64,000 bases of DNA from Promethearchaeota archaeon (lineage in GTDB: Archaea; Asgardarchaeota; Lokiarchaeia; Sigyniarchaeales; SOKP01). The notes beneath the pieces were generated by a model. The model was not told the DNA's origin. It saw nothing but the letters and a program-made list of their open reading frames with translations, and did not search any database. The stretch is taken from NCBI GenBank assembly GCA_019057795.1, contig JAHLWS010000080.1:32001-96000 (forward strand). The letters run 5' to 3'. The translations under genes and the position numbers were made by a program. Positions 5,609 through 60,544 of this stretch are shown piece by piece; position 1 is the first letter of the stretch; each line of letters begins with the position of its first letter.

Positions 5609-6526
5609 ATGGTAAAAGAAAATACATTTGCGTTTTTTTTAGGGTGTCTCATGCCTAATAGATATCCTGCTATTGAAAAAGCTACGATGTATGTTATGGA
5701 AAAATTAGGTTATACTTTATTAGATATGGAGAGAGCTACATGTTGTCCCGCTCCAGGAGTATTTCGCTCGTTCAACAAATTTGATTGGATGGTGGCAGGT
5801 GCTAGAAACCTCTGTATAGCTGAAAAACTTGATGTGGATATTATTACTGTCTGTAATGGATGTTTTGGAACGCTCCAAGAGATTAACAAACATTTAAAAG
5901 AAAACGAAGAGCATAGGGAATTGGTAAACGAAAAACTGAAACTTCTTGGCGATTATGAGTTTAAAGGAACGATCGATGTCCGACATATTGCCGAAGTGTT
6001 AGGATATGAAGTTGGTCCTTGGGGTATTGAAGAAGTTATAATTAGAAAAGTTAACGCCCGCGCTGCGGTACATTACGGCTGTCACTTTCTAAAACCAACT
6101 AGAATTAGAGAGATTGAAAGCTCTGAGGGACCAACGATCGTAGAAGAGTTTATTGAAGCGTTAGGGGTAGAATCTGTAAGATTTAAAGAACAATTAACTT
6201 GTTGCGGCGCTGGCGGAGGGGTAAAAGCGTACTCTGGCGACGCAAGCATGACGATTTTTGGAGAAAAAATGAAAAATATTGATGAAGTAAAACCTGATTT
6301 TATATTAGATATATGTCCCTTCTGTCATCTCCAATTTGAGACGGGACAAGATTATCTCAATAAAAATAAAGATTGTAATTACGATTATCCAGTTATTCAC
6401 ATTTCGCAACTTGTTGCGTATTGTATGGGGATGGACCAAGAATTTGTTGGTCTTCAATACCAATTAATGGGCAGAGATTACATTTTTGGTCGGCAAGAAA
6501 TCAAAAAAGAAGAGGAGGTCGTGTAA
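5609..6526 (+). CDS. hdrB: Heterodisulfide reductase subunit B
   Basis: FFLGC, TCCPAPG, CNGC, HYGCH, CCGAGGG, CPFCHLQF (two CCG domains). Confidence 0.95.
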   Translation: MVKENTFAFFLGCLMPNRYPAIEKATMYVMEKLGYTLLDMERATCCPAPGVFRSFNKFDWMVAGARNLCIAEKLDVDIITVCNGCFGTLQEINKHLKENEEHRELVNEKLKLLGDYEFKGTIDVRHIAEVLGYEVGPWGIEEVIIRKVNARAAVHYGCHFLKPTRIREIESSEGPTIVEEFIEALGVESVRFKEQLTCCGAGGGVKAYSGDASMTIFGEKMKNIDEVKPDFILDICPFCHLQFETGQDYLNKNKDCNYDYPVIHISQLVAYCMGMDQEFVGLQYQLMGRDYIFGRQEIKKEEEVV

Positions 6527-53471: not shown

Positions 53472-54404
53472 TTAAAATATTAATTTCCAAAAGGTCTGGT
53501 TATTGTAAATTACTTTTTTAATCTTGTTCTGCGATGCTAGAGTATTCAATTGAAGTAATATGTCTTGTTCATTAAACTTTTTTGAACAAAATGTTTCAAA
53601 AATTTGTTCTTGTCTCATTGGATGTCTTTCAAGTAAGTTCTTTAATTCCATTTCAAAATTAGAACTAAAAACACTAAATTTTCCTCGCTCAGGAAAATTT
53701 ATATTATTATATTCTCCAAAAACATCGTTTAAAATCGGAATGACGCTTTTATCGGGAATTTGCACCCAACTTTCAGTAGGAGGTCTTATTGGAACGTTAA
53801 CGTCAATTCTATCGGGTTTGATTAAATCTAATTTATTTTTTATTTTTAATAGTTCTTCTTTAGAATCGTTAATTCCCTTCATTAACATTATTTCTATCCA
53901 GAATTTACCGTTGAATTCTTTCCTAAAATCAATGTATCCTTGAATCATTTTTTCATACTTTATGGAGGGATGAGAACGATTTATTTTAATAAATAACTTT
54001 TCATCTCCCGCATCTAAAGTAGGTAAAACAACATCAGAAAACATAAGTTCATACTTTACATCTTCGTGATATAATAAACTACCATTAGTGATTACACAAA
54101 TTGGTTTTTCAGATAATTCCTTTGCTTTTAATATCAATTCTCCTATACTTTTGCATAATGTAGGTTCCCCACTACCTACAAATGTTATGTAATCAAACTT
54201 ATTTTTATTAAGACTAATAGACTCTTCCATCTCTTTAATAATTTCTTCTTTACGGCAAAAATCTTTCCTCTCGTTCGTAAAATTAGTTGTTCTTCCTAAT
54301 TGACAATATATACACTGATAATTGCAGGTTTTTGAGGGAATTGGGTCGATTCCTAACGAATTTCCTAATCGTCTACTAGGAACAGGTCCATACACATATT
54401 TCAT
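53472..54404 (-). CDS. Radical SAM protein (TYW1-like subfamily)
   Basis: YGPVPSRRLG.SLG, CNYQCIYCQ, GSGEPTL. Confidence 0.9.
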   Translation of the reverse strand: MKYVYGPVPSRRLGNSLGIDPIPSKTCNYQCIYCQLGRTTNFTNERKDFCRKEEIIKEMEESISLNKNKFDYITFVGSGEPTLCKSIGELILKAKELSEKPICVITNGSLLYHEDVKYELMFSDVVLPTLDAGDEKLFIKINRSHPSIKYEKMIQGYIDFRKEFNGKFWIEIMLMKGINDSKEELLKIKNKLDLIKPDRIDVNVPIRPPTESWVQIPDKSVIPILNDVFGEYNNINFPERGKFSVFSSNFEMELKNLLERHPMRQEQIFETFCSKKFNEQDILLQLNTLASQNKIKKVIYNNQTFWKLIF

Positions 54405-54444
54405 ATTCTTTTATAATTAATACGATGTTTTTAAAAATTTATTT

Positions 54445-54888
54445 TTATTTTGCCATTGATGCTTTATATCTATTTATCGCTCTTCTTAATGTTCTTATCG
54501 CTAAATCAGCACAATGTTTATGATCTTCCGGCAACCCTTTTAAAGCCGAGTCAATATCTTCCGGTTTCAAGGCTTCAGCAAAACTTAAAGATTTACCTTC
54601 TATAAGAAGCGTAGTTTGACACGCTGTTGCTAAGGATGCTCCACAACCGTCAATAACAAAATTTGCTTTCTCAATTATATTACCATTGATTTTTAAAAAA
54701 AATAACATTGAATCCCCGCATGGCCCTTTATACTTTTGTGAAATAGTGATATCTTCATCTGGAGGTTTTCCCCAATTTTTTGGATTGTGAAATAAATTAA
54801 CGATATATTCGTTAAATTCTTTTATTTCTTGTTCCATTATCTCTTTTTGAAGCTTAGCGAAAAACTCATCAAAATTTTTTTCAGACAT
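54445..54888 (-). CDS. NifU/IscU Fe-S scaffold
   Basis: GPCGD, DGCGA, HKHCA. Confidence 0.92.
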   Translation of the reverse strand: MSEKNFDEFFAKLQKEIMEQEIKEFNEYIVNLFHNPKNWGKPPDEDITISQKYKGPCGDSMLFFLKINGNIIEKANFVIDGCGASLATACQTTLLIEGKSLSFAEALKPEDIDSALKGLPEDHKHCADLAIRTLRRAINRYKASMAK

Positions 54889-54919
54889 CTTAGACTGAAT
54901 TACTATTTATTGTGTAATA

Positions 54920-55336
54920 CTAGTGGTGATGATGATTACGATCGTTATCATCTGCTTCTGTATGGATTTTTTCTACTCCAATACCTTTACCACCACCGGG
55001 AGAACAAATGTTTTCGCCACCTTCTAAAGTTCCATCTAAGATTTTTCCAATAGTGTCGTCAACGCTGCCAATAACACCCCTAATAACTTCAATTCCATAT
55101 TCGTTAAAAAAACCAATTGCTCTATGGCCTATTCCACCCGTGATCATACATGTTGTACCTTGCTCATTTATGAATTTAGGTATGCTTCCAATCGTGTGCC
55201 CTGGATTGGGAAGAACTATTCTCTCAATTACTTTATTATTGTCAATTGTAACAAATGTAAACGAAGGCGCTCGACCAAAATGCTGGGCAACATTTCCTGA
55301 TTCTGTACATATGACTATTTTCAACTTTGAAACCAC
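54920..55336 (-). CDS. NifB/NifX family cofactor-binding protein
   Basis: HFGRAPSF, ITGGIG.RA, His-rich tail. Confidence 0.92.
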   Translation of the reverse strand: MVSKLKIVICTESGNVAQHFGRAPSFTFVTIDNNKVIERIVLPNPGHTIGSIPKFINEQGTTCMITGGIGHRAIGFFNEYGIEVIRGVIGSVDDTIGKILDGTLEGGENICSPGGGKGIGVEKIHTEADDNDRNHHHH

Positions 55337-56458: not shown

Positions 56459-56719
56459 TTACCTTGAAAAACATGTCTAATACTGAAATAAGAATTAACT
56501 GAAGAATTTAAATAAATATTATTAAACGAACTAAAATCAATAAATTTGAACCAAAATTAGAAAAATTAAAGCTCAAATGGTTGATATAAAAAGGAAAAAT
56601 TCTTGGCGTTATATTAAACCGGCTAAGGGAAAAGATTTAAATACTGCGAAATAATTGTTATTCCATAGAAAGATAAAATTCAACCGTAGTATATCTTTTG
56701 AAATATTAAAAAATTAATA

Positions 56720-56853
56720 GAAATAAAATAGGGAAAATATAACCGTGACTCCTGCGCTACCCTGGATTTTTGTCTTTTGGTAGTGCGTAAAGCACTCAAT
56801 TACTACCCCTATTTTTTTTCTGACCTTATCTTTAGGTCGCAGCAGCAGGAGTC
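56720..56853 (-). ncRNA. Putative structured non-coding RNA (multi-helix junction, possible pseudoknot)
   Basis: GC-rich patch; GACTCCTGC/GCAGGAGTC 9-bp closing stem plus 5-bp extension, GACCT/AGGTC and GTGC/GCAC hairpins, 13/14-bp long-range helix. Confidence 0.55.
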
Positions 56854-56909
56854 TTCCTTCTTTCCTTTGTTCTTGCTTAATTAGAATATGCCAAAAAATA
56901 TGTAACTAT

Positions 56910-57138: not shown

Positions 57139-58980
57139 GTGAAACGCAATGGAGAGAAAGTTTTAAAAAAAGTTGAAAACATATTCGAATACTATTGTCG
57201 AATCTCAGGTTTCGATATTTATAATAAGTTTTATCGTCCAACAAGATTAGTAGCTTATAGGATTTCCGAGGAATTGAGGAAATTAGGCGTGATTGACAGT
57301 TGCCATTTATCTGAAGTAGATAATCTAGTCAAAGATCATCTAAATGAAATTTTTGATTTTGAAAGCATCTTTAATAAAGGAAAGCAACAAGTTAATTGGA
57401 TCCCAGATTCAGACACAATATCGGATTTTGTAAAAACAATATTAAAAGCCTCGCAAATGAAACTAGAATTAGTGAATCCGATTCAATCTGCTCGAATCTA
57501 TAATATCTTATCAACAAACATTGAAAATATTCAAAAGGATTATTTGGATTTTCTTATTAACGCTAAAGATGGATTAGGGCTGCTTAAAGATTATCCCATT
57601 TCTCCCCGTAGGGTTTTGGTTCATGACATTATTATCTCTTTAGCTAAATACGAATTTTTTGCTCAAATCTTAAAAAGAGACTATCCTCTAAAATTAATTT
57701 CAATATTATTGTTTGGTCATAAAAGTCCTTTAAAAACATTTCTCGTTCAAGAAAATAGACCGTACCCTAACAAAATTTTATCTTTATATCTCCCATTTAC
57801 AACGGATATAATAACAAAATTTGATAAACTTGATTTAACAATTACTTTCAAGCAAATGAAAAGCCTTCAAGAAGATATTTATGAAGATATTAAATCTTGG
57901 ATTTTCTCTAATCCTTACAATGATGACCTCTATGTTAATGAAAATCCAATAAGAGGTTTTAAACCAATTAAGAAAGGCGAGCTATTTCCTGAATATGATT
58001 TTGTAGTAGCAGTATGGTTAATGAATGCAATTCATCAAAATAAAAAGGACCTATTATTTTCTGAATTAAAAGGATATCGCCCAAGCATATTTAAAAAGCT
58101 TTTGAGAAACTCCGATCCGCTACCTGAGAACGCATGGAGAACTCTTATGCATGGTATGTTGGACATCTACGAAATGGATTCTTCTCTTTATCCTGAAAAA
58201 ACCGTCATCTATCGTAAATGTATCAAGGAGTCGGTAAAATACGCTAAGCTCAGAGGATTCAGCTTTTTCAACCCGAAAAGACCGGATTATCATAAGTATT
58301 TATTTAATGAAGAATACGTCGTTGCTTACAATGTAATTATGGAATTAGCAATGTTTCATGGTATTGATCCAGTTGACTTTACAATGCTAAAGGATGAGAC
58401 TTTTAGTAAAGAATATCAGGTCGGGAAGGATAAGTTTGCTCGCCACGAGCCTTTTGGATATTCGCTTTCTCCGTTCAGCCAAGTCCTTACCACATTTAGA
58501 CAAAATGTTGGAATATATAAAACTTTAACCAAACCTCAACAAAGAGTTGCTATTAATTTATTTAAACAATTAATGCTATTCGAAAAGCACGATGCTGGAG
58601 GTAATTTATTAGATATTGACCATACAGACATTATGAGAATTTACGGAGAGCAAAATTCATGGATATACAAACGATGGGGTAAGGGAATATGGCACGATGA
58701 TCCAAAATTCATAAATACTCTAAATAAACTGAATCATTTAAGACGAGAAATACGGCAGAAATCATTAGATCAATATTTAAAAGATAATTGGAAAGTAGCA
58801 TATAATCGATTTTGGGTGAACAATATTGCGAGCGGTAAGAGCAGGTGCGATTTGTACTATCTAATATACGAATTAGAAGGATTGGGCGACGATAATTTAG
58901 TACAAGACATCTTATCCATCGACTTCGGTCAACTTTTCGGCAATCTTTTATCTGACCACGGTTATCCGGTAAGGCTATAA
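57139..58980 (+). CDS. Large orphan protein (613 aa), possibly nucleic-acid acting
   Basis: Long ORF, no family recognised; GIDPVDF...FARH segment. Confidence 0.75.
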   Translation: MKRNGEKVLKKVENIFEYYCRISGFDIYNKFYRPTRLVAYRISEELRKLGVIDSCHLSEVDNLVKDHLNEIFDFESIFNKGKQQVNWIPDSDTISDFVKTILKASQMKLELVNPIQSARIYNILSTNIENIQKDYLDFLINAKDGLGLLKDYPISPRRVLVHDIIISLAKYEFFAQILKRDYPLKLISILLFGHKSPLKTFLVQENRPYPNKILSLYLPFTTDIITKFDKLDLTITFKQMKSLQEDIYEDIKSWIFSNPYNDDLYVNENPIRGFKPIKKGELFPEYDFVVAVWLMNAIHQNKKDLLFSELKGYRPSIFKKLLRNSDPLPENAWRTLMHGMLDIYEMDSSLYPEKTVIYRKCIKESVKYAKLRGFSFFNPKRPDYHKYLFNEEYVVAYNVIMELAMFHGIDPVDFTMLKDETFSKEYQVGKDKFARHEPFGYSLSPFSQVLTTFRQNVGIYKTLTKPQQRVAINLFKQLMLFEKHDAGGNLLDIDHTDIMRIYGEQNSWIYKRWGKGIWHDDPKFINTLNKLNHLRREIRQKSLDQYLKDNWKVAYNRFWVNNIASGKSRCDLYYLIYELEGLGDDNLVQDILSIDFGQLFGNLLSDHGYPVRL

Positions 58981-59029
58981 ATCCCTACTCCCATAATATT
59001 TAAATAAGCACATTTCTTTATTGAGGATA

Positions 59030-59437
59030 ATGAAAAAGAAAAAAACTATTATTATCAAGGACCCCCATCTGCGAAAAATTCGGGATAATTTAAGAGTAGT
59101 GATAGACCGTGCAGTAAATAATGAAGTATCGAGGTTTTGGAATTTAATGATGCAGATCGATCGAAGCACGGATGAGGGGCGCGATCAATACTTTGCGCTT
59201 ATGCACCAGAGGGACGCCCTCGAGATGATGGAGAGTAGTTCGACAATCCAGTGCGCCGCATGCAACTTCGGTATCGACAGAGATGTGCGATTTAATCCTT
59301 TTGACAAGGCATGGTACTGTATTGAATGTTACGACCTTATACGAGACCAATATTATAAGACGATGGCTAAAAAGAAAAAGGGCGAATTTATTGGCACCGA
59401 TTATAACGAAGAATATGCCCGGAGCTTCACTGATTAA
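59030..59437 (+). CDS. Hypothetical zinc-finger protein
   Basis: CAAC...WYCIEC; visibly more GC-rich than flanks. Confidence 0.75.
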   Translation: MKKKKTIIIKDPHLRKIRDNLRVVIDRAVNNEVSRFWNLMMQIDRSTDEGRDQYFALMHQRDALEMMESSSTIQCAACNFGIDRDVRFNPFDKAWYCIECYDLIRDQYYKTMAKKKKGEFIGTDYNEEYARSFTD

Positions 59438-59681: not shown

Positions 59682-60083
59682 ATGCCCGGTGGAGATAGAA
59701 CTGGACCTAGAGGTTTTGGTTCAATGACAGGAAGAGGTTTAGGATATTGTGCGGGATATAACAGTCCTGGCTATGCAAGTGGCGTAGGTTTAGGTTATGG
59801 TCGCGGTTATGGCCGAGGGATGGGTTGGGGTGCTGGACGCGGAAGAGGTTTTGGTAGAGGATACGGTAGAGGATACGAGATGGGATACGGATATGGAGGT
59901 CCTATTAATCCTCCTTATGTAGTTCCTGCACCAGTTTATGCGCCAATGGCCCCTTTAAGCGCTGGAGATCAAGCAACAATGTTAAAACAAGAAAAAGATT
60001 TCTTAGAATCTGAGCTTAAAGGTATAGGTGCCGCGATTGAGGATATCTCTAAAAGAATTGAAGAACTAGAGAAAAAAGAATAA
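59682..60083 (+). CDS. DUF5320 family Gly/Arg-rich protein
   Basis: MPGGDRTGP.G.GSMTGRGLGYC, GRG repeats, C-terminal coiled coil. Confidence 0.93.
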   Translation: MPGGDRTGPRGFGSMTGRGLGYCAGYNSPGYASGVGLGYGRGYGRGMGWGAGRGRGFGRGYGRGYEMGYGYGGPINPPYVVPAPVYAPMAPLSAGDQATMLKQEKDFLESELKGIGAAIEDISKRIEELEKKE

Positions 60084-60148
60084 TTTTTTTTTTCATTTTT
60101 ATATTAATTAAAACTTTAAAAGTTCAAATTTGATTATGGATAAGTGCT

Positions 60149-60544
60149 ATGTCGTTAATTAAAGATACTTACGAAGATTATCTCAAAGCAATTTACATCG
60201 TATCGAAGAAAAACAAAGGTGGATGGGTTTCTAATTCAGAGATATCTAACTTTTTAAAAGTTAAGCCCGCTTCTGTATCAAACATGTTGTTTAAATTGCA
60301 AACTAACAATTTAATAAATTGGCGTCCGAGAAAATCAGTAAGATTAAGTACGAAAGGAAAAGATATAGCAATTAGAACCATTAACAAATATAATCTATGG
60401 AAGAGTTTTTTTATTAATACCTTGGGTGTAAACGATAGTCTTGAACTCGACGAACTTTGTTGTAAAATAGAACATTTCATAACGCCCGAAATTTCAGATG
60501 CTTTAGAAAATTTACTTCTCGAAGAAGTACGAGAAAATCTTTAA
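60149..60544 (+). CDS. DtxR/MntR metal-dependent regulator
   Basis: EDYLKAIY, VKPASVS, CKIEH. Confidence 0.92.
   Translation: MSLIKDTYEDYLKAIYIVSKKNKGGWVSNSEISNFLKVKPASVSNMLFKLQTNNLINWRPRKSVRLSTKGKDIAIRTINKYNLWKSFFINTLGVNDSLELDELCCKIEHFITPEISDALENLLLEEVRENL

Follow-up and report, generated by a model that had tools for sequence, protein, structure and literature searches.

The window, that is, the whole stretch of 64,000 nucleotides (nt) analysed here, corresponds to C80:32001-96000 of the genome of a Promethearchaeota archaeon from the Lokiarchaeia (4.95 Mb in 87 contigs, about 30% GC). It carries at 56720-56853 a GC-rich patch that a preliminary description, made from the letters alone, had singled out as a putative structured RNA. 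Our analysis confirmed that this patch is a real gene for a structured small RNA of about 110-125 nt, which lies on the plus strand of the window. In the family to which it belongs, a helix of 10-13 base pairs (bp), P1, clamps a multi-branch core made of a U-rich loop (CUGGAUUUUUGUCUUUUGG), the hairpin P2, a long single-stranded C/U-rich linker (J2/3) and the hairpin P3, and P1 is followed by a tail of the type (A/U)CC(C/U)UUU. The features of the window copy are the following:

56536-56715, plus strand: upstream module with a B recognition element (BRE)/TATA-like GAAAAGAUUUAAAUA at about 56629-56643 (own-genome blastn and alignment)
56720-56733, plus strand: A-rich upstream segment complementary to 56807-56820 at 13 of 14 positions, the crossing helix (complement scan)
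56741-56746, plus strand: conserved positions -6 to -1, consensus AAnnAU and AACCGU here, before G+1 at 56747 (positional information)
56747-56853, plus strand: body of the small RNA, delimited by the outermost bases of P1 (covariance model R1: 108.6 bits, E 9.8e-26; the match spans 56744-56861)
56747-56758, plus strand: 5' strand of P1, GACUCCUGC and a GCU extension, pairing with 56841-56853 (A56844 bulged)
56762-56783, plus strand: near-invariant U-rich segment CUGGAUUUUUGUCUUUUGGUAG, which contains GAUUUUUG (identity across the seven copies of the genome)
56782-56796, plus strand: P2 hairpin, AGUGC-GUAAA-GCACU (covariation, five pairs)
56797-56820, plus strand: J2/3 linker, single-stranded and pyrimidine-rich (alignments and predicted fold)
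56822-56838, plus strand: P3 hairpin, GACCU, a 7-nt loop and AGGUC (covariation, five pairs)
56841-56853, plus strand: 3' strand of P1, AGC, the bulged A and GCAGGAGUC (pairing, predicted fold and covariation)
56854-56866, plus strand: tail rich in U and C, probably an oligo-U terminator (positional counts, 78 unique elements)

A direct check of the sequence located every helix that had been listed for the patch. P1, drawn between GACTCCTGC (56747-56755) and GCAGGAGTC (56845-56853), was recovered, as was the GACCT/AGGTC hairpin at 56822-56838 (P3), which is supported by covariation in relatives. The third hairpin, GGTAG-GTGC-gtaaa-GCAC...CTACC at 56779-56807, was likewise present, but only its inner part is shared by the family: the GUGC/GCAC pairing (P2) covaries, whereas the outer GGTAG/CTACC pairing exists in this copy alone, most relatives having CUCC at this place. 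The expectation that the patch would fold better than shuffled controls was borne out for 56715-56860 on both strands (z-scores of -4.15 on the minus and -4.63 on the plus strand against 200 dinucleotide shuffles), and the folds of the element itself gave z-scores of -4.9 and -6.1. For 56745-56866 on the plus strand, the minimum free energy (MFE) was -36.8 kcal/mol (z -4.92 relative to shuffles). Its MFE fold consists of a 12-bp P1 with one bulged A, the U-rich loop, P2, a 24-nt unpaired linker and P3, and is the same structure as the one supported by covariation. The U-rich segment is predicted to form a loop closed by CC/GG (56760-56761 with 56779-56780). J2/3 of the window copy is shortened: the consensus GAUUUCGCCCUCC is missing, and the 3' part of the linker, 56807-56820, is complementary to the upstream segment.

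A search for homologs and covariation yielded many of the former and a strong signal of the latter. In a covariance-model alignment of 99 matches, in which the sequences were fitted to the model so that pairing percentages lean towards the structure, standard pairs filled 95.6% of the cells, versus 76% with the 3' partners shuffled and only 29-47% with the partners slid by 1-3 columns. Double-sided changes were observed at all 20 modelled pairs, with 290 compensatory cells versus 51 expected from shuffling. They affected all 10 modelled pairs of P1, 5 of 5 pairs of P2 (96.5% of cells paired) and 5 of 5 pairs of P3 (97.3%), the latter with variants such as GACGC/GCGUC, GCCUU/AAGGC and GCUUC/GAAGC. 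The extension of P1 also covaries among the copies of the same genome (GCU/AGC, GUC/GAC, ACC/GGU, CCCC/GGGG). From 32 diverse members aligned simply with MAFFT, RNAalifold predicted P1 and P2 with compensatory changes, and on the model-based alignment it again predicted P1, P2 and P3, plus the CC/GG closure of the U-rich loop.

The wobble pairs gave the strand. Across the family, paired positions contained 74 G.U or U.G against 15 A.C or C.A, an excess which indicates selection on the plus strand of the window. The preliminary description had favoured a minus-strand RNA, a preference that rested on one extra G.U pair in one copy and that the family-wide counts reverse. They also speak against its suggestion of a single-stranded DNA origin or recombination structure, since such an excess indicates selection on one RNA strand. 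More generally, a structure acting at the DNA level (replication origin, recombination site or cruciform) could be invoked because the element folds equally well on both strands and because its inverted repeats include the TATA-like A-rich arm. We nevertheless regard it as extremely improbable, given the 5-fold strand-specific bias typical of selection on RNA, the presence of the conserved U-tract on one side only and the absence of linked replication or recombination genes.

The genome contains seven copies of the element (75-87% identity to the window copy). Within the same genus, each of the 24 genomes sampled gave 1-9 BLAST matches to it. Covariance model R1, run with stricter filters on 20 genomes of the same GTDB family and 100 genomes of other Asgard families, detected it in 20/20 of the former, covering five genera, and in 0/100 of the latter, covering 24 families. 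Within the genomes sampled, the RNA is thus restricted to a single family of Lokiarchaeia, with 1-18 copies per genome. A wider spread among Asgard archaea, as suggested by genomes labelled Thor-, Odin-, Hermod- or Hodarchaeota, was rejected: those labelled Odin and Hermod, which we checked, turned out to be genomes of the same GTDB family, with match coordinates identical to those of known members (G172 = G021, G170 = G088). In a scan for the exact motif, species genomes yielded at least 120 stretches, and marine-sediment metagenomes likewise yielded at least 120. The highest copy number, 18, was found in the 5.2-Mb genome G173 (which holds L096), where some copies lie in tandem about 290 nt apart. 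Copies linked to this genome (L291:3910-4209 and 6040-6339, L293, L294, L295) include some with a deletion of one U in the otherwise invariant core (CUGGAUUUUUGUCUUUGG).

As anticipated, no Rfam 15 model matched anywhere in the window at gathering thresholds, and at E<=10 the window copy and the best-scoring copy of the genome produced only noise (8-19 bits, E>1), without any model of a known ribozyme or riboswitch. The element is not a tRNA either, as had been stated: ARAGORN found no tRNA or tmRNA gene in the window. A full-text literature search found no description of this RNA. The earlier proposal of a new structured non-coding RNA motif therefore stands, with many covarying homologs and neither an Rfam match nor a tRNA identity. 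The family is new in the sense of being absent from Rfam 15 and not found in the literature, the kind to which it belongs, stand-alone structured small RNAs, being already known.

The element is non-coding. A micro-ORF (open reading frame) of 12 codons over the invariant block, MTPAPPWIFVFW, was dismissed because neither its frame nor its ATG is conserved: 19 of 77 unique elements have no ATG, and in the 58 others the invariant block falls in frames 0, 1 and 2 in 19, 30 and 9 cases, respectively. A C/D box small RNA (sRNA), which would have a C box (RUGAUGA) close to its 5' end and a D box (CUGA) close to its 3' end, was discarded by inspection of the alignment, the 5' end being AUGACUCC and the 3' end GGAGUC(A)CC; the one CUGA of the element lies within J2/3, and the window copy has lost it.

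The most constrained part of the molecule is the U-rich loop. The 22-nt block CTGGATTTTTGTCTTTTGGTAG at 56762-56783 is identical in all seven copies of the genome, amid stems that vary by compensatory substitution, and the U-rich segment is retained in the relatives found by BLAST. The same U-rich sequence, over 19-22 nt, recurs in at least three other P1-clamped scaffolds. These alternative scaffolds comprise a subfamily with a different P1 and without P3, and minimal forms reduced to a covarying P1 and the loop. Such a fixed sequence in a drifting molecule points to a specific molecular partner. An antisense role of the core was not supported: no complement with up to three mismatches was found in the genome apart from the elements themselves, and pairing of the core and J2/3 with the 16S or 23S ribosomal RNA (rRNA) of the same genome was no better than that of shuffles. 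Pairing with CRISPR repeats or in the manner of a tracr RNA was rejected likewise, as the same complement scan revealed no repeat-like complement. The Sm site of small nuclear RNAs (snRNAs) is RAU3-6GR located between stem-loops (PMC2582628), and U-rich single-stranded RNA is bound by the Sm-like archaeal proteins, or SmAPs (PMC3710371). In our element, GGAUUUUUGU, located between P1 and P2, fits R-A-U5-G, the final purine of the Sm consensus being replaced by U, and the genome contains four ORFs with an LSM domain, three of them clear (C31:64678-64872, C21:36791-37006 and C77:190976-191170). The other single-stranded part, J2/3, carries in most members an unpaired tract of the CCCUCCUCCCCC type, which is shortened to CUACCCC in the window copy.

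Conservation extends beyond P1 for 6 nt upstream (AAnnAU, then G+1) and 7 nt downstream ((A/U)CC(C/U)UUU). Counted over the 78 unique elements, the rise in upstream positional information is confined to -8 to -1, with U(-1) in 63 and A(-2) in 73 of them. The U|G step at the foot of P1 suits the pyrimidine/purine initiator of archaeal promoters and may correspond to an initiator-like start or to a processing site; the U-tract suits an archaeal terminator. A metagenome scan for transcripts of the element returned genomic contigs only. Further upstream, blastn within the genome delineated a module of about 130-180 nt common to the window copy and four paralogs, i.e., to 5 of the 7 RNA copies, in which an invariant BRE/TATA-like GAAAAGATTTAAATA is accompanied by a second box, AAAGATAAAAT. 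This module also occurs alone, without the RNA, before a 91-aa (amino acid) ORF at C66:13177-13298 on the minus strand. It resembles a reusable promoter or leader cassette, and its boxes suggest a putative promoter role. Two other readings of this region were abandoned: the upstream AAATAAAATAGGG is not enriched as a general promoter motif (9 occurrences in the genome versus 7.4 expected, 5 of the 9 in elements), and a 25-aa ORF in the module is not conserved.

The preliminary description had also proposed a 13/14-bp helix between 56720-56733 and 56807-56820 that crosses P1. This helix is real, with compensatory variants, but exists only in a subset of the family. A perfect upstream complement of at least 10 nt to J2/3 was found in 21 of the 78 unique elements (about 27%), versus only 3-4% for shuffled or foreign upstream regions, at a variable distance of -14 to -49. 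At least five distinct compensatory variants were recorded (TAATATAGGG/CCCTATATTA, CAAAATAGGG/CCCTATTTTG, ATAAACTAAA/TTTAGTTTAT and others), and the motif is not characteristic of the genome as a whole. Since about 70% of the members do without the crossing helix, it is not part of the universal core; it may correspond to leader pairing in a precursor or to an alternative fold. This helix is also the starting point for viewing the element as a self-cleaving ribozyme or a processing substrate, whose active form would include the upstream leader in a double-pseudoknot topology similar to that of hepatitis delta virus (HDV)-like ribozymes. The helix indeed crosses P1, the hairpins follow in HDV-like order, and the -1/+1 step (U|G) at the foot of P1 is conserved. 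However, an HDV-like or other small self-cleaving ribozyme would be quite improbable for a family in which most members have no crossing helix and the others have it at variable distance, in which no ribozyme model matched at E<=10, and in which J3/1 revealed no conserved nucleotides of a catalytic type.

The neighbourhood of the window copy did not bear out the island in which the element had been placed: the GC content is flat (about 0.27-0.35), and no integrase or transposase domain was present in the ORFs scanned from -4.3 kb to +5.2 kb around 56720. The surrounding genes at 53472-55336 (minus strand) and 59682-60544 (plus strand) encode radical-SAM, NifU-like, dinitrogenase Fe-Mo cofactor-family and DUF5320 proteins and an iron-dependent repressor, which make up an Fe-S/metal-related neighbourhood rather than an obvious island. 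The RNA had been tentatively linked to a divergent orphan of 613 aa. This ORF (57139-58980, plus strand) is not divergent, because the RNA lies on the plus strand and is thus co-oriented with it. The partnership failed as well: the six other copies of the genome have no homolog of the protein nearby, and a tblastn search of 286 fetched loci, which total 1.77 Mb and carry about 240 copies of the element, recovered only its own locus. The protein had no match in Pfam, NCBIfam or PADLOC; its only match in the genome was weak (24% identity over 222 aa, on C5). No significant family was found for the next ORF (138 aa, 59021-59437, plus strand). The 613-aa and 138-aa ORFs are unrelated to the RNA.

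An all-against-all BLASTP comparison of the ORFs within 7 kb of the seven copies identified no shared neighbour except a 123-aa ORF, common to two copies that were duplicated together with their flanks. The neighbours belong to ordinary Asgard types (Roadblock/LC7, Gtr1/RagA-Arf GTPases, HMPTM-type radical-SAM, formylmethanofuran-dehydrogenase-like), and domain scans found no integrase, transposase, reverse transcriptase, TnpB or IS110 among them. With no reverse transcriptase, TnpB/IscB or IS110 gene adjacent, the RNA could not be assigned to the partner RNAs of mobile elements (retron msr-msd, omega RNA, IS110 bridge RNA). A selfish or mobile repeat, similar to short interspersed elements or miniature inverted-repeat transposable elements, or the RNA of a mobile or defence module including for instance the 613-aa ORF, could be considered in view of the variable copy number (1-18, dispersed and tandem), the duplication units of about 300-350 nt, the location of two copies of the genome about 0.8 kb from contig ends and the occurrence of one variant on an IMG/VR contig. 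Yet the borders of the ~300-nt unit show neither terminal inverted repeats nor target-site duplications, genes for mobility are missing from the neighbourhoods, the family-less 613-aa ORF accompanies no other copy, about 26 genomes share one locus in stable synteny, and compensatory evolution implies long-term selection on the fold, so that such an origin appears improbable. An association with viruses was likewise not retained, as one of four core matches in IMG/VR was family-like and the others were due to chance. The former, L289:39-142 (minus strand) on IMGVR_UViG_3300029288_000001 (224,826 bp), is a divergent but recognisable family member (39 bits) at the contig end. This viral-classed contig of 225 kb may represent a virus or mobile element of Asgard archaea, or else a piece of chromosome that was misclassified.

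The syntenic locus raises another alternative, a cis-acting leader (riboswitch-like aptamer or attenuator) in which P1 and the U-tract would form a conditional terminator and the helix between leader and J2/3 the alternative fold. In about 26 loci, the RNA is located between a divergent gene of about 130 aa and a gene of about 570 aa for a radical-SAM protein of the HMPTM type, tied to methanopterin biosynthesis; the latter is co-oriented with the RNA and begins 200-380 nt downstream of it. The best-scoring copy of our genome, C49:59284-59409, belongs to this orthologous locus. Overall, the ORF that follows downstream has the same orientation as the element in 49 of 69 cases. The compensatory variants of the crossing helix also agree with such a leader, as does the likeness to P1-closed riboswitch aptamers (tetrahydrofolate and purine classes): the junction closed by P1 has conserved unpaired nucleotides, and several copies per genome stand before different genes, one conserved locus being upstream of a pterin-pathway gene. 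By contrast, 20 of the 69 downstream ORFs are convergent, frequently at only 47-107 nt, and 12 of these 20 end within about 110 nt, so that the element is not consistently placed before a co-oriented gene, as a 5'-untranslated riboswitch or leader would be. Once the orthologous locus is removed, the orientation is about 23 to 20, essentially random. The genes downstream of the copies in our genome (the 613-aa protein without family, a Roadblock/LC7 protein, unassigned proteins and the HMPTM gene) share no pathway and thus form no coherent regulon, spacers of 200-400 nt leave space for separate promoters, a contiguous invariant block of 22 nt is untypical of aptamers, and about 70% of the members lack the alternative helix. 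Together with the absence of an Rfam match, these observations make a cis-acting role unlikely. The RNA is independent of its neighbouring genes.

We thus favour, with a probability of roughly 55%, a stand-alone plus-strand gene for a small RNA that would act in trans and whose U-rich, Sm-site-like loop would bind a conserved partner, an SmAP being the leading candidate. Transcription would start at or near G56747 and stop in the U-tract. The U-rich loop, held out by P1, would be the working part, bound by the conserved partner in a sequence-specific manner. An SmAP ring is the best candidate for this partner because the stem-flanked GAUUUUUG resembles an Sm site and because four LSM-domain proteins are encoded in the genome. 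The C/U-rich linker, which in most members is CCUCC-like, could be free to pair with purine-rich RNA, e.g., ribosome-binding regions.

Several observations weigh against this proposal. No positional TATA signal was detected at -26 over the 78 elements (in an upstream background of 52% A), and some paralogs have a strong BRE/TATA-like box about 115 nt upstream, so that a longer precursor is possible. The match to the Sm site is imperfect, with U instead of a purine after G, and 22 invariant bases far exceed what an Sm ring requires. No SmAP gene is linked to any RNA copy. Part of the invariance seen for the core in the large data sets is a matter of circularity, since the scans used the exact motif and the covariance model gives weight to it. 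Finally, a stand-alone trans-acting RNA leaves unexplained the upstream complement to J2/3 present in about 27% of the members.

The comparison with known small RNAs gave a similarly mixed picture. Like Sm-class snRNAs (domain A, in which stem-loops flank an Sm site) and like sRNAs bound by SmAP or Hfq, the element has a single-stranded GAUUUUUG between two helices, is small and stable-looking, and combines a terminal helix with a 3' U-tract, in a host that has several Sm-fold proteins. Unlike snRNAs, it has U in place of the purine of the Sm consensus and 22 invariant nt versus about 9 in the Sm site, it resembles no snRNA in sequence or by covariance model, and it is confined to one archaeal family. 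The RNA could even be the scaffold of an Sm-ring ribonucleoprotein (RNP) in Lokiarchaeia, close relatives of eukaryotes among the archaea, in which a near-canonical Sm site would be stably bound by SmAPs in a snRNP-like manner and the C/U-rich arm would recognise other RNAs, a more specific version that we consider distinctly doubtful. The bacterial sRNAs with C/U-rich seeds (RsaE-type, Hfq-dependent maskers of ribosome-binding sites) share with our element an unpaired CCUCC/CCCCC linker, stable hairpins followed by a U-tail, and the status of a stand-alone gene with multiple paralogs; unlike them, the element has an archaeal host, and neither the window copy nor its closest paralogs have the CCUCC block.

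To our knowledge, very little has been reported on the non-coding RNAs of Asgard archaea, and few riboswitches and ribozymes are known to us from archaea as a whole. An RNA present in every sampled genome of one Lokiarchaeial family, with unusually clean covariation and a 22-nt U-rich sequence fixed amid drift, is notable in this context. Should the partner be an Sm-like protein, a long-sought in vivo client of archaeal Sm proteins would be at hand in the closest lineage to eukaryotes; should the RNA instead sense a ligand or process itself, it would represent a new class in a domain with few riboswitches and ribozymes. Covariance model R1 allows the labelling of hundreds of unexplained GC-rich intergenic patches in metagenome-assembled genomes of Lokiarchaeia.

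Three further resemblances concern the size and the ends of the RNA. Like the Y RNAs of the Ro60 RNP, it is about 100 nt long, with a long bulged terminal stem, a pyrimidine-rich interior and a 3' U-tail; this identity was rejected because the genome has no TROVE/Ro60 gene (PF05731) and because no Y_RNA or other Rfam model matched. The ends also looked tRNA-like (U-1 | G+1 ... NCC), an idea that we discarded since the tRNA genes of the genome do not have such flanks and rarely encode CCA; the flanks of the element, U|G ... NCC(C/U)UUU, are unlike theirs. One tRNA gene, tRNA-Leu(GAG) at C70:123597-123681 (minus strand), has an acceptor stem, GCAGGAGU / ACUCCUGC, identical to 8 bp of P1, and its 3' part contains CCCUCCUCC, as does J2/3. 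This likeness is probably coincidental.

Finally, 5S rRNA was considered because RF00001 finds nothing above cut-off in the genome or in 30 relatives, and the element, like 5S rRNA, measures about 120 nt and has 5' and 3' ends that pair in a closing helix with two arms. Unlike 5S rRNA, it is multi-copy, divergent between copies and limited to one family. No RF00001 match was found at the element, and the identity was rejected because a separate 5S-like gene with canonical motifs is present at C49:29476-29565. The 5S rRNA of this Lokiarchaeial family is itself unusual, since 0 of 31 genomes exceeded 38 bits for RF00001 and three scored 30-33 bits. Besides the gene on C49, candidates were located at L164:1501-1618, L165:1501-1620 and L166:1501-1619. 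They keep CCGAACC...GAAGUUAAAC and GUACU...GGGAAAC, their helix I pairs poorly, and their 3' end forms with its flank a hairpin, CUGUGAG-UUCG-CUCACGG, followed by UCAUAG. These features might be due to misplaced ends, to tandem copies or to a permuted gene.

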